Positions 10,016-57,599 are shown, counted from the first letter of the stretch. The stretch is DNA of 64,000 nucleotides from an archaeon (GCA_028279825.1 JANQNA010000007.1:89409-153408); one strand, 5' to 3'. Notes: generated from the letters alone by a model not told the origin. A program made the numbers and translations.

Positions 10016-11077
10016 ATGATAAAAATTTCTGATCCTTACATTGGTGAAGAGGAGATAAATGCTGTAAGAAGGGTTCTAACCAGCGGTACGCTTGCCAGAG
10101 GCCAGGAAACAAAGAGTTTTGAGAAACACTTTGCTGCCTATGTAGGCACTAAAGACGCTGTTGCAACAAGCAGCGGTACGACTGCGCTGCACACGGCATT
10201 GATTGCGAACGGCATAGGCAAAGGCGACGAAGTCATTACGTCAGGATTTTCCTTTATCGCAAGTGCAAACACCATATTGCATACAGGTGCAAAGCCCGTA
10301 TTTGCCGATGTCAACTATGACGATTTTAACATCGATACAGAAGATGTAGAAAGGAAGATAACTGACAAGACGAAAGCTATTGTTGTCGTGCACCTATACG
10401 GACAGTCATGTGACATGAAGAGAATACGGGAAATTTGCGAAACACACAATTTGAAATTAATAGAAGATGCGTGCCAGGCTCATGGTGCCGAATATGAGGG
10501 GAAAAGGGTGGGGTCATTTGGCACGGGATGTTTTTCATTTTACGCGACAAAAAACATGGTAACAGGCGAAGGAGGGATAATAACTACTGATGATGATAAA
10601 GTTGCTGAATCTGCAAGGATGATAATCAGTCACGGTTCAAAAATTAATTATGAAAATGTTCAGATGGGTTACAATTTTAGAATGACTGAGATGCAGGCAG
10701 CAATAGGCAATGTGCAAATTAAGAGGGTAGATGAGTTGAATCAGAAGAGAATAGAAAACGCCGGATTGTTCAGCTCCCTGATAAAAAACCATGATATTTC
10801 TGTGCCAAAAGTAATGAACGGCAGGAAACATGTTTTTCATCTGTACACAATCAAAACACAAAACAGAGAAGAGATAATTGAGAAACTCCAGAAAAACAAC
10901 ATAGGGTATGGTATTTATTATCCAAAGCCGATACACAAACAGGAATTGTATCAGAAACTTGGCTATAAAGACTCTTTGCCCGTTTCAGAAAAACTTTCCG
11001 GAGAAGTTCTTAGCCTTCCGGTTCATCCAAAGGTTACAAAAGAAAATATAGAAAAAATAATTTCCTGTATAGAGTGA
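10016..11077 (+). CDS. DegT/DnrJ/EryC1/StrS-family PLP-dependent NDP-sugar aminotransferase
   Basis: 353 aa. GDEVITSGFSFIASAN, DACQAHGA, and the PLP-lysine context FSFYATKNM. Confidence 0.85.
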   Translation: MIKISDPYIGEEEINAVRRVLTSGTLARGQETKSFEKHFAAYVGTKDAVATSSGTTALHTALIANGIGKGDEVITSGFSFIASANTILHTGAKPVFADVNYDDFNIDTEDVERKITDKTKAIVVVHLYGQSCDMKRIREICETHNLKLIEDACQAHGAEYEGKRVGSFGTGCFSFYATKNMVTGEGGIITTDDDKVAESARMIISHGSKINYENVQMGYNFRMTEMQAAIGNVQIKRVDELNQKRIENAGLFSSLIKNHDISVPKVMNGRKHVFHLYTIKTQNREEIIEKLQKNNIGYGIYYPKPIHKQELYQKLGYKDSLPVSEKLSGEVLSLPVHPKVTKENIEKIISCIE

Positions 11078-50658: not shown

Positions 50659-52476
50659 TTAAAACAGATCTGTTAAAGACAAGATTTTCAGGAAGTTGAT
50701 GTACGGCCGGAGGTCCTGTTTTTTGACGGCAAAGCCTGTTATTGTTGTACCATCAGTATTTTCACTTTCCCCTACGCTTATCACTGTCTGCTCTACGGAC
50801 AAAACTTTGGAATCTTTCAGAAGAACCAGATAAAAGGTTCCAGATGAAACAAGGGTGTGCTGTTTTGTGCGCGTATTTGTGTCAGGTCCTAGGATGAGGA
50901 TTTCACAATCATCACAATTTGTCGATACTGTTCCCCCCTCAACGTTTATCTTTGGCTTGTCACCGGCGACATTTATTGTTCTTGTTATTTCATACTCCTT
51001 GTCGCCGTTTATTTTTACTCTTAGTGTATAATCACCCGCTTCAGTGCCCAGTTCAATCTTGTTTTTCAGAACAAGTTCCATCTTATTGTTGTTAATTACT
51101 ATTTCCTTCTTGTTTGCATTCCACGTTCCTTTCCAGGTTGAACCGTCAAAGCCAAGGGAAACGGGATTTACACCCTTGTATACGTAAGAATAAACTTCAA
51201 GATCCTTCTTATCGGGTGACGTTATCTCAACAACCACCTCAAATTCATCGTCAACGAAGACACTTTCCGGATATGACTTGATTTCGTATTTTTCAACTAG
51301 ATCACTCGTTGCCGGCGGAACGTATGTAGAACCACCTCCGCCTCCACTGGAGCCGGAAGATACAACCTGTACCTGGCAGTAGGTAGAAGACAGACCGCTG
51401 ACAGTTATACTGGCCGTGCTGTTCTTGTCAAGACCTTCGGCAAGTATTGTGTAAACACCGTTACCATGGGCGCCGTCACAGTTGGGTTTCAGCCTTACAG
51501 GTAGTGTGACTGTATGTGTTGAGTTTTTCGGGGTTGCATGGTAAGTTGTGGTGTCACTTATGCCCGGTATTGATACGTATACGGCATACTTGGCCGTTGC
51601 GTTTCTGTAAATATCAAGAGTAACGTCAAAATCATCGCCAAAAACTACGGACGACTTGTCTACGTTCGTTATTGTTATGTATGACTCTTCGCTTGGAAGT
51701 TCAATTTCTGATACATTGATATTGCCGCAGACTGCGTTATTTGTTGTGTTTGATTCATTTCTAAATAACTCACCGCATACTTCATATGAGCCGGTCTCAT
51801 TATGCGTCCAGTTGCCACCATAAGCCGTACAATTTGTTTCTACGGTGAACGTATTGGTTACGTTGAGAATTGTGTAATTTACTGTTATGTCTTCAGCAGT
51901 ACAGTTTTCTATGCTTATCTGGAAAAGGTTTGATACTGTTTCATTGACAGCGACCGAAAGATTGAACAGTGCCAGGGAAGCGTCTGTCGTGACTGTGTAC
52001 TGCCGGTTGACCTGGCCGGGTGTCGGTTCACATTCCGTCCAGTTGCCGAGTAAGCAGGCTGTTTTGCCTTCCGTTACATCCGGATACGTTATGTTGTCGA
52101 AAATTGTGTTGTTCTTGAGAATTACCGTTTCTTCTGAATTTGGAAGGACCATCCCGGAGACATTTATGACTGTTTCATTGTATCCCGGATAATCATTGAG
52201 AAACGTTATCGGATCCTGTGCTATTACTGCGTATGCTCCCGGAATCAGTATCATGCTGCTTTGACTTACATTTTCCAGGGATAAGCCATGATCAACACCC
52301 CCCGTGTTGAGTTTCCAGTCTGTGAGGTTGTAGGTTACGTTTTCATTGTTGTAAATTTCAACCCATTCGTGACCTGTGTCAGATCCCTGAAAATCAAACA
52401 TAATTTCACTGATTACTACAGCATGTGAAATAGAAGAAAGCAGTAATACCACTGCAAATACATACTCCAAACGCAT
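50659..52476 (-). CDS. secreted surface protein with N-terminal lamin-tail-domain-like segment, heavily sequon-rich
   Basis: 605 aa. Signal peptide MRLEYVFAVVLLLSSISHA. LTD-like ISEIMFDFQGSDTGHEWVEIYNN. About 22 N-x-S/T sequons in residues ~45-355. SSGSSGGGGGS linker, then a sequon-free C-terminal domain. Confidence 0.75.
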   Translation of the reverse strand: MRLEYVFAVVLLLSSISHAVVISEIMFDFQGSDTGHEWVEIYNNENVTYNLTDWKLNTGGVDHGLSLENVSQSSMILIPGAYAVIAQDPITFLNDYPGYNETVINVSGMVLPNSEETVILKNNTIFDNITYPDVTEGKTACLLGNWTECEPTPGQVNRQYTVTTDASLALFNLSVAVNETVSNLFQISIENCTAEDITVNYTILNVTNTFTVETNCTAYGGNWTHNETGSYEVCGELFRNESNTTNNAVCGNINVSEIELPSEESYITITNVDKSSVVFGDDFDVTLDIYRNATAKYAVYVSIPGISDTTTYHATPKNSTHTVTLPVRLKPNCDGAHGNGVYTILAEGLDKNSTASITVSGLSSTYCQVQVVSSGSSGGGGGSTYVPPATSDLVEKYEIKSYPESVFVDDEFEVVVEITSPDKKDLEVYSYVYKGVNPVSLGFDGSTWKGTWNANKKEIVINNNKMELVLKNKIELGTEAGDYTLRVKINGDKEYEITRTINVAGDKPKINVEGGTVSTNCDDCEILILGPDTNTRTKQHTLVSSGTFYLVLLKDSKVLSVEQTVISVGESENTDGTTITGFAVKKQDLRPYINFLKILSLTDLF

Positions 52477-52507
52477 TCTAGAATCTTAACTAAAAGAAAT
52501 AAAAGGG

Positions 52508-52939
52508 TTAGCAGTCCCTTGAATCCTTGTTTCCAGGGCCGCTTATCTGTATTTCTGAATCACCGCTACAGCCGATTGTCGTTGTGTTGCATGATTTTAC
52601 AACGCCGGGTGCCCATGATCCTGCCTGCGCGCCGCCTGCTCCCCACTCGCACGTAACGGGTGTATTGTTTACATAGACTGTCAGCACAGACGTGTCTGCT
52701 ACTACAGAACCGATATGGCGGATGTAGATAACTGCTTCTCCCTGCCCGCCTGATATAGGATCAATGTTGTCTATCGAGAATTTCTGTCTTTGCCTGTTCA
52801 TCTGTGTTTCAAGATCAGATTCAACACCACTTGTTGTTTCCTCAAGAGATCTCTGCAGGAATACAAAGGCGAAGCCTGCCATGGAGATTGTAATAAGTAA
52901 CAGTAATATTATAGCTATAACAGGAGTAATACCCTTCAT
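52508..52939 (-). CDS. archaeal type IV pilin-like protein (class III signal peptide)
   Basis: 143 aa from ATG 52939. MKGITPVIAIILLLLITISMAGFAFVFL is the KG/xxPVIA prepilin-type N-terminus. The longer track ORF (to 53023) runs through the promoter. Confidence 0.7.
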   Translation of the reverse strand: MKGITPVIAIILLLLITISMAGFAFVFLQRSLEETTSGVESDLETQMNRQRQKFSIDNIDPISGGQGEAVIYIRHIGSVVADTSVLTVYVNNTPVTCEWGAGGAQAGSWAPGVVKSCNTTTIGCSGDSEIQISGPGNKDSRDC

Positions 52940-52970
52940 ATAATCACTGTAAATCCTTTCGTTTATGGGG

Positions 52971-52978
52971 TATATAAA
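52971..52978 (-). promoter_or_regulatory. TATA box of the pilin gene
   Basis: The minus strand reads TTTATATA about 32-39 nt upstream of ATG 52939. Confidence 0.4.
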
Positions 52979-53090
52979 GAATGTGGTAATCTGGACTTTG
53001 CACAATAACTTCATATCTAACAAAAAGTACGATTCTTAAATATATATCTGATATCTTCTACGCCGATGTATATGAAGACGAAGTCATCAG

Positions 53091-53447
53091 TTAATCTATG
53101 TACTTGCCTGTCAAGAATACAATCACCAGAAACAATAACATATACCAGATGGCCCTTATTTTGATGGTATCATGATAAAACAGTGTTTCCTGTCTAGCAT
53201 ATTCTTCTAGTAATGCATTTGTCTTGCTGCTGTAATTGGCACAAACAACTTCTCCGCTATTCCAGTTAACATCGTACTTTATCGTTGTACCGTTATACAT
53301 GTTACAGAGTGCAAAGTGAGCACCCTCATGCCATTCTACAGCCAACATAGAATGTCCAAACATTAACAGTAACCACACTACAGGCACTATAATCAGAGCA
53401 AGAAATATCCTGTGTTTGTTTTTTGAAACCTTTGTACCTGACATCAT
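53091..53447 (-). CDS. small two-TM protein with HExxH motif
   Basis: 118 aa. TM helices at both ends. EWHEGAHF contains H-E-x-x-H. Lies inside the IS-bounded segment. Confidence 0.45.
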   Translation of the reverse strand: MMSGTKVSKNKHRIFLALIIVPVVWLLLMFGHSMLAVEWHEGAHFALCNMYNGTTIKYDVNWNSGEVVCANYSSKTNALLEEYARQETLFYHDTIKIRAIWYMLLFLVIVFLTGKYID

Positions 53448-53452
53448 CTAAC

Positions 53453-53469
53453 TACGTGTATTACACGTA
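53453..53469. promoter_or_regulatory. perfect 17-bp palindrome between divergent passenger genes
   Basis: TACGTGTA-T-TACACGTA. It lies 6 nt upstream of the 53447 start and 65 nt upstream of the AbrB-like ORF. Confidence 0.35.
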
Positions 53470-53534
53470 TTTATTGTTGATTTTAATTGTAAGCCAGCCG
53501 TAATTTATACGTGGAGTAAACGTAGTGGTGGAGA

Positions 53535-53708
53535 ATGAAAATAGACAAGTACGAGATCAGAAAGGTTGTCAAGTGGGGCCAGGGAAAAGTGGTCTTCCTT
53601 ACCAAGGAAATCACCGAATGTATGATGAAAGAACACGTTATAGTTACAGTTGAGAAAGAAAAAGGCGAAAAAGTAATCAAGATCAGGAACTTTCAGTTAA
53701 AGGGTTAG
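53535..53708 (+). CDS. AbrB/SpoVT-like small DNA-binding protein (not in ORF track, 57 aa)
   Basis: MKIDKYEIRKVVKWGQGKVVFLTKEITECMM… fits the swapped-hairpin pattern (r.v.k.G.g..v.l.ke). GGTGGAG lies just upstream of the ATG. The antisense track ORF 53483-53680 is low-complexity. Confidence 0.5.
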   Translation: MKIDKYEIRKVVKWGQGKVVFLTKEITECMMKEHVIVTVEKEKGEKVIKIRNFQLKG

Positions 53709-53717
53709 AGCTCAATC

Positions 53718-53945
53718 TTAGCTGTATACACCCTCTTCTATTTCCTTCTTTGATTCTGACAGTTTCTTGATACCCTGTATGCTTTTTTTCATCTCGTCTG
53801 TAGAAAGGAAATAGTCATTGCAGGTGGAACAAAATTTTGGATTCGTAGTTTTAACTATAGCTATGTCTGGGTTGCCTATTTGAGCACACAACTTTTTTGT
53901 TCCTTCCTTCGATTCCAAGGCCTTCGAGCAGTTCGGACATTTCAT
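53718..53945 (-). CDS. zinc-ribbon protein (MKCPxC…CxxC, YgiT/MqsA-like finger pattern)
   Basis: 75 aa from ATG 53945. MKCPNCSKAL…FCSTCNDYF. Confidence 0.45.
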   Translation of the reverse strand: MKCPNCSKALESKEGTKKLCAQIGNPDIAIVKTTNPKFCSTCNDYFLSTDEMKKSIQGIKKLSESKKEIEEGVYS

Positions 53946-53986
53946 GATAAACACATCTCATACGTAGTAATTAATCTATATATAGC

Positions 53987-54367
53987 TTAACTACTCTTTA
54001 AAGTTTTCTGCAGTTTTTTCTGTTCTTTGTGGGTTGCTATGTCCATACGACCCACGGATATCACCTGTTCCAGCAGATCCACACAAACAGCAATTTTCAA
54101 GGTGCTGTCGATTAGATCGGAGAAAAATATAACACTGTATGAATACTCATCCCCACCGAATTTGTTGATCTCCAAGTTCCATTTGATAACACAGTTATCT
54201 AGTTGCTTGATCTTTTCCTCACAGTCATCAAAGAAGTTGTCTATCTTTTCGTCAGTTTCACACTTTGCTATTATCTTTTCGGCTTGATTGATTATACCCT
54301 GGTTCCAGATGAAACTACATTTTGGAAGTATTTCCTTCAAAAGTTTGACGTCTCCAGTATCACTCAT
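53987..54367 (-). CDS. hypothetical protein
   Basis: 126-aa acidic ORF. No motif recognised. Confidence 0.5.
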   Translation of the reverse strand: MSDTGDVKLLKEILPKCSFIWNQGIINQAEKIIAKCETDEKIDNFFDDCEEKIKQLDNCVIKWNLEINKFGGDEYSYSVIFFSDLIDSTLKIAVCVDLLEQVISVGRMDIATHKEQKKLQKTLKSS

Positions 54368-54398
54368 TAAACCATAGACTTACTGAATTTATTTAATG

Positions 54399-54536
54399 TT
54401 ATTCTTTGAATATCCTGGTTAGTTTGTCGTATACTTCGTTCAAACTTGCGCCGTAAACGGTCAAACTCTTACTTTTGTTGTTCTCGCGGTCACGAATCGT
54501 AACAGTTATCCCCATAGGCCTGTTAATTGTTACCAT
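54399..54536 (-). CDS. small hypothetical protein
   Basis: 45 aa from ATG 54536. The longer track version overlaps the transposase 5' region. Confidence 0.3.
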   Translation of the reverse strand: MVTINRPMGITVTIRDRENNKSKSLTVYGASLNEVYDKLTRIFKE

Positions 54537-54588
54537 AATAATTACATTTAATGTTAACTTTAAATAGACTTTGTATAAGTTACACGCC

Positions 54589-55554
54589 ATGTTAACACAG
54601 ACTGTAACAAGAAACTGGAAGATGTACAATCACGCCCAAACGGAAGAAAAACTCCTTGCTATGAGACTAATCAGCCACGCTATAGATTACATGGAATTCC
54701 CTTACGAGTACAAGGGAACAGGCAGGCCTTCAATCTACGTGACAGACATGATAAAATGCTGTATATTCAAGGTGTTTAATAACTTCTCATCGAGGAGAAC
54801 AATTTGTGATATCAAGTTGGCTCACGCTTTAGGGTATATAGATCATGTTCCTCACTTCAACACGGTAAACAACTACATGTCAAAAGAGGTTATAACTCCC
54901 CTCCTCCACAGGGTTTACAAAATTCTAGCTCTCCCTTTTGGTGATGTAGAGACCACGTTTGCTATCGATGCTTCGGGATTTTCTAACCTGCGCAAAAACA
55001 ACTGGATAGATTACAGAACCCAGAAAAAACGTATAGCTGGTTGGAAGAAACTCCACATCGTAACTGGGGTTAACACTACCATCATAGCCTCAGCAACTGT
55101 TAGTGAAGGAAAAAGAAACGACACTCTGTACTTTGATTCTCTAATCAGACAAACTGCAAAAGAATTCAGAGTGTTGGAAGTGTTAGCTGACCCTGCCTAT
55201 CTATCCCGTAACAACTGCAACACAGTTGAGGATGTAGGAGGGCGGCCTTTTATTCTTCCAAAATCCAATATCAGGTTAAGGTCTCTTCAAGCTTACAGTA
55301 GAGCACGGGCATGGAAAAAGATGATAAAAGTCTGGCGTGATAACCAACAGTTCTTCCTGGAAAAATACCACAAAAGAAGCAATGTAGAGTCCGCTTTCAG
55401 TTCCATGAAAAGGAAATTTTTACCTTACACTCGCAGCAAAAACGACACAGCCCAAACAAACGAGATCCTCATGAAGGTCATCTGTCATAACGCATCCATT
55501 CTTTGTAACGCTTTTTTCGAGCTCGGGATTAAATTCGAGCTAAAAAAGGTCTAG
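54589..55554 (+). CDS. DDE transposase, IS4 family signature
   Basis: D (FAIDASGFS), D (VLADPAYLS), and an exact Y-x2-R-x3-E-x6-K in KYHKRSNVESAFSSMK. The track start is TTG 54571, with ATG options at 54589 and 54622. The stop codon lies within the right terminal repeat. Confidence 0.85.
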   Translation: MLTQTVTRNWKMYNHAQTEEKLLAMRLISHAIDYMEFPYEYKGTGRPSIYVTDMIKCCIFKVFNNFSSRRTICDIKLAHALGYIDHVPHFNTVNNYMSKEVITPLLHRVYKILALPFGDVETTFAIDASGFSNLRKNNWIDYRTQKKRIAGWKKLHIVTGVNTTIIASATVSEGKRNDTLYFDSLIRQTAKEFRVLEVLADPAYLSRNNCNTVEDVGGRPFILPKSNIRLRSLQAYSRARAWKKMIKVWRDNQQFFLEKYHKRSNVESAFSSMKRKFLPYTRSKNDTAQTNEILMKVICHNASILCNAFFELGIKFELKKV

Positions 55555-55605
55555 TTTTTGTGCAAAGCCGGTAATCTGGAGGAATTATAAAATCTTTTCC
55601 TATAT

Positions 55606-56388
55606 ATGGTTGCTATGCCTATGGCGACATTTGATAGTATAATGAGGGAGCTCTTGCCACCAGAGAGGTTTGTATTATACGGTAGCGTCCTTTCTGAAGA
55701 AGTAAGACATGGAGGAGATTACTATGTCAGAAGTCCAAAACATGGAGTATTCGTGAAGGTTAGTTCGTTGCCATACAGAACTGTCAGAGAACATAATGAT
55801 TACGGAATTTGGGACAGATTAGATGCGTTAAGAAATGCCCCGTTTTACAGAATGGCCATAACAGACGAAAGTCTTCCTGCTGGTATTGAGGAAGGGCAGC
55901 ATATGATGCTTGACGGGGACCCATTCTTCTGCAGGCAAATGATGATAGCTAGTTTAGGACGTATAGGTTACCATCCTGCCTGCCCGGATCTAAGGGAGGC
56001 TATGCTACATGACCTGGACCCGTATATACGAGGCTGGTCTGCAACAGCCCTTGGAAGAATAGGTGACAAAAGATACACGGGAGATCTAATAGAGGCTGCC
56101 CGTGGCGGCCAGGGAGAAGCAACTGATGCTTTAGGACTAATGAAAGATGAGGCAGCTGTTCCTGCACTCAGAGAAATGCTAGAGGACAGCCAACGGGATC
56201 ATTATCTGGCCAGGTTCACACGCGACTATAGACGCGCAACAATGGCACGAAACAGAATTATGGACATAACAGAAGCACTGAACCGGATAGGAGGCAGTGG
56301 AAAACTTGCTGTGTCAGAAGCCTTAAGCACCGAAGATCCATGGTTAAACTGGTCAGCAGCCAAAGGTGTAGAATATTCAAAGATCTAG
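55606..56388 (+). CDS. HEAT/PBS-lyase-repeat protein
   Basis: 260 aa. Repeats of the …DPYIRGWSATALGRIGD… / …ATDALGLMKDEAAVPALREML… type. About 52-55% G+C in hand-counted lines, higher than its neighbours. Confidence 0.7.
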   Translation: MVAMPMATFDSIMRELLPPERFVLYGSVLSEEVRHGGDYYVRSPKHGVFVKVSSLPYRTVREHNDYGIWDRLDALRNAPFYRMAITDESLPAGIEEGQHMMLDGDPFFCRQMMIASLGRIGYHPACPDLREAMLHDLDPYIRGWSATALGRIGDKRYTGDLIEAARGGQGEATDALGLMKDEAAVPALREMLEDSQRDHYLARFTRDYRRATMARNRIMDITEALNRIGGSGKLAVSEALSTEDPWLNWSAAKGVEYSKI

Positions 56389-57134
56389 AGAATCTTGCCA
56401 TCTGTAAGGCGTTTCCAGTTTCTGTTTGTCTTTTCCTGGACTTTTTCTATGTCTTCTTCCTTGATTGCAAATCTCTTCTGGACGTGGTTGAATATATCTA
56501 CAGGTTCTAATCTGTTAGGCCGCTTTGTAAGGTTGACTGTACCTCTCTCTATCTCGAACAGCGGCCAGAGTCCGGTTTCAACAGCCACACGCCCGACTTC
56601 TATCATGTTTGACGGTTCAAATTCCCAGAATTCAGGGGACGGGCACAAAAGATCTATGAACTTGAAACCCGGTGTTGCTGCCGCTTTTTTTAATTTCGCT
56701 ATATAATCATCAGGGTGTGAAACTGTAGCTGTTGCCAAATATGCAGAACCGGCTACCAGTTCTTTGGAGAAGCTCTTGCCCAGTTTTTCGTCCATGCAGC
56801 TGTATCCCTGGTCGTTTGCACAAACGTACAGGATGTTTTCTGTGGCGTTTATCAAAGAGTTCAAATGTTCGGATGTTGATCCGTCACCTGCAAATACAAC
56901 CACAGTTGTATCTACTTTTGGATCCAGAGATCTTGCTATCCCGCGCGCTACACTCACGGCATTTGTACCTGCGTGCACGAAAGGTATGTTAAGGCCCTTA
57001 AGATCAGAGGAACTGACCAGAATTACGTTGTCTAACGCCTGTAATAATAGCTTCAAACCGAGTGTGCTGCCGCTGTCACTTCCGCCTGAAAATTCGACCT
57101 CTTTAAGCTCGTCTAAATTCACATCCATGGACAT
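56385..57134 (-). CDS. porB: 2-oxoacid:ferredoxin oxidoreductase beta (TPP-binding) subunit, divergent
   Basis: 249 aa. TPP motif VVFAGDGST…ND. Only 3 Cys in the whole protein. The N-terminal CxxC region is replaced by FSGGSDSGST. Confidence 0.65.
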   Translation of the reverse strand: MSMDVNLDELKEVEFSGGSDSGSTLGLKLLLQALDNVILVSSSDLKGLNIPFVHAGTNAVSVARGIARSLDPKVDTTVVVFAGDGSTSEHLNSLINATENILYVCANDQGYSCMDEKLGKSFSKELVAGSAYLATATVSHPDDYIAKLKKAAATPGFKFIDLLCPSPEFWEFEPSNMIEVGRVAVETGLWPLFEIERGTVNLTKRPNRLEPVDIFNHVQKRFAIKEEDIEKVQEKTNRNWKRLTDGKIL

Positions 57135-57178
57135 GGCTATTCCTTAGATTAAATACTTTTTATAGTTATAACCCATTT

Positions 57179-57253
57179 GGTGGCGATGATAAAACCGTCC
57201 CAGTGTGACAAGATTATATCTTGGATGAGCATACGGGTAGCTTTTGAGCCACC
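57179..57253 (+). ncRNA. candidate box C/D-like sRNA
   Basis: Terminal stem GGTGGC/GCCACC. C-like GCGATGA (57183-57189), D'-like GTGA (57205-57208), C'-like GGATGA (57223-57228) and D-like TTGA (57244-57247). Two 15-nt spacers. All boxes are imperfect. Confidence 0.3.
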
Positions 57254-57260
57254 GTTAATA

Positions 57261-57599
57261 CTAAACGAAAACGTCTCTTTGTTTTGAGAGTTCTACACCT
57301 TTTGGTACAAGTGCATATTTTAGAAAGGCTTCTTCTGGCGTTCCTTCAAAAACAAAGAAAACACCGTCACGTTCTACAAACACGTCTTCTTCATATGCTG
57401 TTGCTGTTTTGTGGTCGTGCATGGGACCCATCATACGTGTTATTTCTACACGGTTAGGGCGTCTTGTTACATCTGCAATCCCAGATCTGAAGTATTCAAA
57501 TTTTATTCCGTGGACTGCTGTGCCATAAAAGACAACAGTACCTTCCGAAAAGTCCTGTCCTGCGAATTCTTCAAAAGTAGCGTCTCTTGCTTCTGACAT
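57261..57599 (-). CDS. hypothetical protein
   Basis: 112-aa ORF. No motif recognised. Confidence 0.5.
   Translation of the reverse strand: MSEARDATFEEFAGQDFSEGTVVFYGTAVHGIKFEYFRSGIADVTRRPNRVEITRMMGPMHDHKTATAYEEDVFVERDGVFFVFEGTPEEAFLKYALVPKGVELSKQRDVFV

Follow-up and report, generated by a model that had tools for sequence, protein, structure and literature searches.

Composite transposons such as Tn903, Tn10 and Tn5 carry their cargo between two complete copies of an insertion sequence (IS). Single ISs that enclose passenger genes are rare exceptions in most families. The ISfinder authors call them 'transporter IS' (tIS), and they are recognised in several IS families (PMC7986276). Within the IS4 family, the IS231 subgroup comprises elements of 1.45-5.4 kb that hold passenger open reading frames (ORFs) between the left repeat and a transposase at the right end; the transposase carries the YREK signature, the ends begin with CAT and the target duplications measure 10-12 bp (PMC2266710). 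Here we analyse a 64-kb stretch of DNA from an archaeon (GCA_028279825.1, JANQNA010000007.1:89409-153408), referred to as the window, with positions counted from its first nucleotide. With a probability of roughly 85%, the segment 52994-55569 corresponds to one apparently intact transposable element, a passenger-carrying IS in the tIS sense, consisting of a transposase gene on the right and five small ORFs (orfA to orfE, from left to right). Read in this way, the segment is foreign mobile DNA that splits the shared promoter region of a pilin gene and a HEAT-repeat gene of this genome, and the five small ORFs are to be annotated as transposon cargo, not as core genes.

Ends, target duplication and insertion site

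The whole unit spans 2,576 bp on the plus strand (52994-55569) and is delimited by family-type ends and a perfect 9-bp duplication. The left terminal inverted repeat, GACTTTGCACAATAACT, occupies 52994-53010 on the plus strand, and the right terminal inverted repeat, GGCTTTGCACAAAAACT, occupies 55553-55569 on the minus strand. The right end reads GGCTTTGCAC, which is also the family consensus, and the left end reads GACTTTGCAC; the longer family consensus is GGCTTTGCACAAAAA(G/C)T, and the end motifs of the element are GGCTTTGCACAA / TTGTGCAAAGCC. Directly outside the repeats, the target sequence GGTAATCTG is present in two identical copies, at 52985-52993 on the left and at 55570-55578 on the right.

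The ends are recovered by a weight matrix made from the ends of other elements, with the window's own ends left out. Across the roughly 128,000 positions scanned, the best site is the right end (55550-55569, minus strand, 24.9 bits) and the second best is the left end (52994-53013, plus strand, 21.5 bits), followed by a site of 15.7 bits within an aminotransferase gene. The chance expectation of an inverted repeat combined with a 9-bp repeat 1-7 kb apart is 1.3-2.3e-4 per window of such composition. A second element with ends at 10277-10296 (GGCTTTGCACCTG...) and 10910-10929 (GGCTTTGGATAATAAAT...) was considered and rejected, both sites being chance matches within a 353-residue DegT-type aminotransferase gene.

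The sequence-only reading of the window had already joined the right-end transposase and the five passenger ORFs into one transposed unit, and the family-type ends and 9-bp duplication bear this out. Its boundaries are corrected. The sequences on which they were based exist: CTTTGCACAA[T/A]AACT, matching at 14 of 15 positions, is found at 52996-53010 (plus) and 55553-55567 (minus), with at least 3 mismatches at all other sites of the window, and the 11-mer GGTAATCTGGA, proposed as the flanking duplication, has 2 exact copies in the 64 kb, at 52985-52995 and 55570-55580. Boundaries drawn in this manner are asymmetrical, because 'CC' (55568-55569) separates the inverted repeat from the duplication on the right and no bases separate them on the left. 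Comparison with 40 related elements gives ends of the form (G/A)GCTTTGCAC... and a duplication of 9 bp, not 11 bp, and therefore sets the unit at 52994-55569. The true left end begins at 52994 and not at 52996, the two ends match at 15 of 17 positions, and the 'GA' of the 11-mer corresponds to the first two bases of the left end, which match the right flank by chance.

By analogy with the family, the transposase would bind both terminal repeats (consensus GGCTTTGCACAAAAA), bring them into a synapse and move all the DNA between them. The ends would then be joined to a target cut with a 9-bp stagger, and gap repair would generate the GGTAATCTG duplication. The element would have landed in an 81-bp divergent promoter region between the pilin and HEAT-repeat genes. 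No new mechanism is invoked, as both DDE transposition with a 9-bp stagger and ISs with passengers are established.

The pilin gene (ATG at 52939, minus strand) encodes an archaeal type IV pilin whose N-terminal domain matches TIGR02537, and the HEAT-repeat gene begins with an ATG at 55606. Removal of the element together with one repeat copy leaves 81 bp between the two start codons, and the reconstructed empty site reads ...AAAGAATGTGGTAATCTGGAGGAATTATAAAATC.... The pilin TATA box TTTATATA (52971-52978, minus strand) and a TATA-like box on the HEAT side, ATTATAAAA (55585-55593), are each located 15 bp from the element boundary; both core promoters are therefore intact and now stand 2.6 kb apart. 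The reconstruction agrees with the expected empty site in its back-to-back TATA boxes and in its compact divergent layout, at 81 bp and not the predicted length of about 90 bp. The insertion, earlier placed 7 bp from the pilin TATA box, has its boundary 15 bp away, and 9 of these positions belong to the duplication. Since orfA and the transposase gene are oriented outward like the pilin and HEAT genes, read-through from the element is conceivable. Oligo-T tracts have a role in archaeal transcription termination; they are present at both exits, as T5 within the right repeat and as T5 on the minus strand at 53026-53030, and may limit such read-through.

The transposase and its clade

The transposase gene (54589-55554, plus strand) encodes a full-length, 321-residue DDE transposase, IS903-related and of the IS5 family, with the Pfam domain DDE_Tnp_1 (PF01609, E = 6.6e-15). 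Its candidate catalytic residues are D127, D201 and E267, and the exact Y(2)R(3)E(6)K signature recognised earlier is present as Y260, R263, E267 and K274; all of these residues are invariant in 27 homologues. The same Y-2-R-3-E-6-K spacing is found in IS903B (YNRRSIAETAMYRVK), so the signature cannot tell IS4 apart from the IS903 portion of IS5. Among NCBIfam models, NF033579 'transpos_IS5_2' fits best (115 bits, positions 1-287 of 289), whereas the IS4 model NF033592 (transpos_IS4_1) matches partially with 38.8 bits against a cut-off of 115. The ends of IS4-family elements begin with CA, CT or CAT according to the table of IS4 subgroups (PMC2266710), unlike those of the window element, which begin with GG and GA. 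The former designation 'IS4-type' is accordingly abandoned.

The annotated copy of the IS903B transposase scores 354 bits on NF033579. Aligned with the profile of the window's family by hhalign, IS903B gives 97.8% probability and E = 1e-12 over 285 columns, at 24% identity. The ends of this IS903B copy, located in L086, read GGCTTTGTTGAATAAATC (first bases GGCTTTGTTG), and GGCTTTG is common to IS903B and the window element; terminal repeats with GGC at the start are a mark of the IS903 group. A 9-bp target duplication is typical of IS903. In a tblastn search against plasmids, about 2,800 records match at about 24% identity, and the named ones, IS903B, ISVa2, ISAba13 and ISAlw1, are IS5-like. 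From these comparisons, the transposase appears clearly related to IS903 but in a separate deep clade of the IS5 family. Upstream of its gene, a TATA box, TTTAAATA, is located at 54559-54566, 23-30 nt 5' of the ATG at 54589, a spacing from which the transcript is probably leaderless.

Among 5.8 billion proteins, the closest transposase is 61% identical to that of the window (L001/L002, the closest relative), and the named relatives come from Aenigmarchaeota and Nanoarchaeota bins. On the contigs L001-L003 the gene terminates with TAGTTTTTGTGCAAAGCC, the 17-mer of the window's right end including the 'CC'. A profile of 27 sequences yielded 80 loci from species-representative genomes, a collection that does not include the present genome and in which the best transposase match is 52%, and several metagenome contigs were added. 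In most loci, archaeal and bacterial, the motif ...TGTGCAAAGCC stands directly 3' of the transposase gene. A first delineation, in which the right motif was paired with inverted upstream copies and a 9-bp direct repeat was required, gave 23 elements; the weight-matrix scan gave 40 besides the one in the window, with the same ends and 9-bp duplications (38 perfect at 9/9, 2 at 8/9) and lengths of 2,327-6,843 bp. Their hosts include Aenigmatarchaeota, Micrarchaeota, Pacearchaeota and Methanosarcinales, and the bacterial hosts are mainly Acidobacteriota. Locus L004, with a transposase 58% identical to that of the window, was discarded as a delineated element, its left end not being found within 3.8 kb upstream. 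In viral contigs, the matches are limited to transposases that align along most of their length at 35-43% identity and to one 60-residue fragment at 58%.

Long units are the rule in this clade. Short IS copies ending near the transposase, whose possible existence had been pointed out beforehand, are found at 0 of about 95 related loci, a family-type left end less than 600 bp upstream of the transposase homology being the feature sought; the transposase homology comes no closer to the left end than 910 bp, and in the window the distance is 1,595 bp. Two copies, L048 4124-7926 and L049 4115-7926, lie on one Acidobacteriaceae contig (CAVYVM010000008.1) and share 99.8% identity exactly over the 3.8-kb unit, the identity ending within 2 nt of the ends. 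Each copy has a duplication of its own (GGATGTACC vs AGTATCTCC); whole long units therefore transpose, and the pair indicates that a long unit moved recently. A similar pair, L045 and L046, shows 99.96% identity over a 2.47-kb unit. Cargo is the normal state of the clade, not a recent accident in this genome.

The cargo is entirely different from one archaeal element to another. It comprises an N6/N4 DNA methylase with two unknown proteins in L005 (4.55 kb), an AAA_14/DUF4143 ATPase in L009 (3.67 kb), an HNH endonuclease with small proteins in L010 (3.7 kb), a DUF488 protein in L024 (3.07 kb), a double D12 methylase in L032 (5.23 kb), an SDH-type protease in L091 (4.5 kb) and a Fic protein with a ParG-like protein in L092 (5.95 kb). 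The largest of these units, L020 from Ca. Fermentimicrarchaeum (6.84 kb), holds an N6/N4 methylase with an Mrr-like tail, a D12 methylase, a MORC-like HATPase and a SocA/Panacea protein. Antitoxin genes are also found among the cargo of archaeal relatives.

The clade is a deep one, seemingly unnamed and undescribed, with the IS903 group as its nearest named relatives; an end-sequence search of the literature returned unrelated papers, and a query combining DPANN, IS and restriction-modification found none on the clade. We give about even odds to the broader proposal of an undescribed sister clade of the IS903 group, defined by GGCTTTGCAC ends, a 9-bp duplication and a stop codon inside the right repeat, distributed over DPANN-type archaea and bacteria such as Acidobacteriota, and apparently devoid of a minimal one-gene form. 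Under this proposal, units of 2.6-7 kb in tiny archaeal genomes would routinely ferry genes for restriction-modification, toxin-antitoxin and other defence systems, as well as orphan small-protein modules.

Several structural details of the ends recur among relatives. The right inverted repeat of the window element overlaps the transposase stop codon TAG (55552-55554), and a TAG inside the right inverted repeat is seen in the window (55552-55569), in L001 (1167-1184) and in L004 (4784-4801). A T5 tract (TAGTTTTTGTGC) comes after the TAG in the window and in L001, and in L004 this tract is interrupted (TAGTTATTGTGC); where present, it could double as an archaeal oligo-T terminator. In many family members, TTTGCACAAAAA recurs in a subterminal position, 18-50 bp inward of the left end, as a second and sometimes also a third copy (L091 574/592; L092 3757/3775; L083 2025/2053; L077 4649/4678/4698; L037 1743/1761), and the counterpart in the window is just a weak relic, AACAAAAAGTA, at 53021-53031. 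The arrangement of these copies suggests putative multiple transposase-binding sites. In L092 (3744-3757), L030 (6980-6992) and L015 (3352-3364), a right-type end, 9 bp and a left-type end abut; in L092 and L030 the 9-bp spacer is the target duplication of the neighbouring element. Such abutting ends could represent tandem insertions, end targeting or short derivative elements.

The bacterial branch (L045 5728-6966 and other loci, namely L035, L043, L051, L055, L059 and L075) has a longer transposase of about 410 residues with an N-terminal SWIM zinc finger. Bacterial members also share a conserved upstream ORF of 170-210 residues with no Pfam match, possibly encoding a second protein of the element. 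An identical right end and right flank are found in L005, labelled Candidatus Omnitrophota bacterium, and in L006, from Aenigmatarchaeota, and their transposase matches are each 52% identical to that of the window; L005 may owe its bacterial label to faulty binning. On the contig of the closest relative, a second DDE_Tnp_1 gene (L001 3564-4568) is found on the opposite strand, 2.4 kb downstream.

Passenger genes and competing explanations

The five passengers look like real, nearly orphan small genes. Their in-frame codon scores are 0.21-0.42 bits per codon, compared with 0.30 ± 0.05 for host genes, and the other frames are negative. None of them has a significant family match in Pfam, NCBIfam, PHROGs or PADLOC. 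As for RNA genes, no Rfam family is found in 51000-57500 and no tRNA in the window.

The leftmost passenger, orfA (53091-53447, minus strand, codon score 0.22), encodes 118 residues with two transmembrane helices around HEGAH (HExxH) and two cysteines, in agreement with the two-helix HExxH protein described earlier. Its sole relative among 1.84 billion representatives, P0133, is 30% identical and retains the HExxH motif, both cysteines and both hydrophobic helices. The 87-bp divergent intergenic region between orfA and orfB contains a perfect 8+1+8 palindrome, TACGTGTA-T-TACACGTA (53453-53469), which may be a candidate operator for one of the small cargo proteins.

A 57-residue protein with a predicted four-stranded beta meander is encoded by orfB (53535-53708, plus strand; codon score 0.42, against -0.27 for the antisense ORF). 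The single-sequence model has a predicted local distance difference test score (pLDDT) of 75, that is, moderate confidence, and its best fold matches in the PDB are generic or designed beta sheets (E >= 0.014). Its former description as AbrB-like is withdrawn: no AbrB or MazE family of Pfam matches at E <= 1, no PDB sequence matches at E <= 10, and no AbrB or MazE structure is present among the 50 best fold matches of the model. It has no similarity to the small AbrB-looking cargo proteins of relatives.

Next to it, orfC (53718-53945, minus strand, 0.26) encodes 75 residues with a four-cysteine zinc ribbon (MKCPNC...CSTC). The MKCPxC zinc ribbon noted before is thereby found again, with weak matches to zinc-ribbon and MqsA N-terminal families (E = 0.003-0.03). 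The product of orfD (53987-54367, minus strand; 0.27, the other five frames negative) is an acidic, cysteine-containing orphan of 126 residues with no homologue among 5.8 billion proteins.

The last passenger, orfE (54399-54536, minus strand, 0.29), is divergent from the transposase gene and encodes 45 residues with a predicted beta-hairpin and helix. Its model has a pLDDT of 81, and a fold search with it gives no significant match (best E = 2.4). It is the sole passenger common to other elements and has 9 homologues in the protein database; those in L001-L003 (49-57% identity) and L020 (50%) occupy the same position. In L087 (7001-7907), an orfE homologue without this transposase stands directly 5' of an N6/N4 methylase, with an AIPR protein adjacent, in a defence-type island. 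Another, in L089 (2872-4448), adjoins an IS240-type transposase and an MmeI-type restriction-modification gene. Judged by these neighbourhoods, orfE looks like a small gene travelling with mobile and defence DNA.

The position of orfE bears on the alternative that survives best, although we regard it as improbable: the extra ORFs would be element functions, such as regulators or accessory transposition proteins, and the unit a strict multi-gene transposon. That orfE keeps its place beside the transposase gene, with transposases only 41-61% identical, speaks for such a role, as does the conserved upstream ORF of bacterial members. It is countered by orfA-orfD, whose counterparts are missing from all 40 other elements, by the occurrence of orfE homologues without this transposase, beside a DNA methylase or an IS240-type transposase, and by the wholly different cargo of the archaeal elements.

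Somewhat less probable still is the recent mobilisation of neighbouring DNA by a plain IS of about 1 kb (54567-55569) through a fortuitous distal end at 52994, the ORFs being captured chromosomal genes. The sequence-only reading had suggested such a capture on the basis of an internal end at 54569-54578. The sequence CTTTGTATAA is indeed present at 54569, within the end-like stretch GACTTTGTATAAGTTAC (54567-54583, plus strand), between the transposase TATA box and its ATG; the end-like GACTTTGTATAA lies 22 bp 5' of this ATG. The corresponding stretch of the closest relative (L001/L002) has a comparable sequence, ATTTGCATCTTTAGTTAC, sharing TTTGCA; the internal site could be what is left of an ancestral left end, or a site bound by the transposase. 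However, the family end matrix gives this site -0.6 bits, compared with 21.5 and 24.9 bits for the real ends and 15.7 bits for the best chance match in the 64 kb, so that it is not end-like by this measure and recent capture through a distal end is unsupported. The short form occurs in no clade member. Conservation does not stop at the putative internal end, since orfE, situated beyond the limits of the supposed 1-kb IS, is retained beside the transposase gene in two other elements (loci L001-L003 and L020). For four of the five passengers, the fetched loci contain no relatives, and the passenger region has a GC content of 36-37%, against 42-45% in the flanking chromosome, with 41-42% in the transposase gene. 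In the preferred reading of one intact unit, the internal site could be a putative relic of an ancient end or a transposase-binding site for autoregulation.

Least probable of all, and very unlikely in our estimate, are two separate events, in which an intact element would stand beside the solo left end of an older, decayed copy, with resident genes between them and a coincidental or recombinational flanking repeat: solo or abutting ends do occur in the relatives L092, L030 and L015 described above, yet a perfect 9-bp repeat at the family spacing has a probability of about 5e-6 per given site pair, removal of the unit restores the compact 81-bp divergent promoter region, and no second transposase gene or second right end is seen inside the unit.

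A number of observations weigh against the reading of the segment as one intact element of a seemingly unnamed, IS903-related clade. Neither a second copy nor an empty site was found, the window being 64 kb of a 248-kb contig; the databases contain no related strain, and looking for exact matches to the HEAT protein, the pilin and the transposase led to no other contig. Within the protein collections, the transposase and orfD are singletons, as are the HEAT protein and two more proteins from the flanks, and a metagenome scan with the HEAT protein gave one distant, unrelated locus at 34% identity. At position 2, 93% of the ends in the family carry G, and the left end of the window element carries A. 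The 115 bits of the transposase on NF033579 are below the NCBI trusted cut-off of 140, and its identity to IS903B is only 24%; the name 'IS903 group' therefore denotes a neighbourhood, membership being unproven. The clade may also already be named in ISfinder. Lastly, the notion that the cargo forms a small regulatory or addiction-type module is a guess of low confidence.

Comparison with known systems

The clade-level cargo pattern is the most interesting by-product of the analysis. If it holds, the clade would be a compact vehicle by which methylases and other genes for defence or addiction pass between DPANN archaea, whose mobile elements are, to our knowledge, poorly known, and it would join IS231 as a second clear example of an IS lineage in which modularity is the default. 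Such elements are easily missed by annotation pipelines, because the transposase falls below the IS5 cut-off and the length is 2-6 times that of a typical IS.

Among described elements, IS903B resembles the window element in its DDE_Tnp_1 transposase of about 320 residues with the Y(2)R(3)E(6)K signature, in its best model (NF033579) and in its GGCTTTG ends. The 9-bp duplication measured in the window clade is another resemblance to IS903. IS903B has about 1.06 kb and one gene, whereas the window element has 2.58 kb and five extra genes. Unlike IS903B, the window clade shows no short form, and its hosts are DPANN-type archaea and Acidobacteriota, not enterobacteria.

Like members of the IS231 subgroup, the window element has additional DNA with passenger ORFs separating its left repeat from the transposase gene, as well as the YREK signature, but it belongs to a different family, the IS4 model giving only 38.8 bits. 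Like composite transposons, it has a DDE transposase of the IS4/IS5 superfamily that moves non-transposition genes; in contrast to them, it has a single transposase gene, only 17-bp ends and no second, internal pair of ends. In its structure, the window element agrees with the definition of a tIS, with one transposase gene, terminal repeats, a target duplication and enclosed extra genes, the dispensability of these genes being putative. In conclusion, what distinguishes the window clade from most tIS families is that every delineated member is long.

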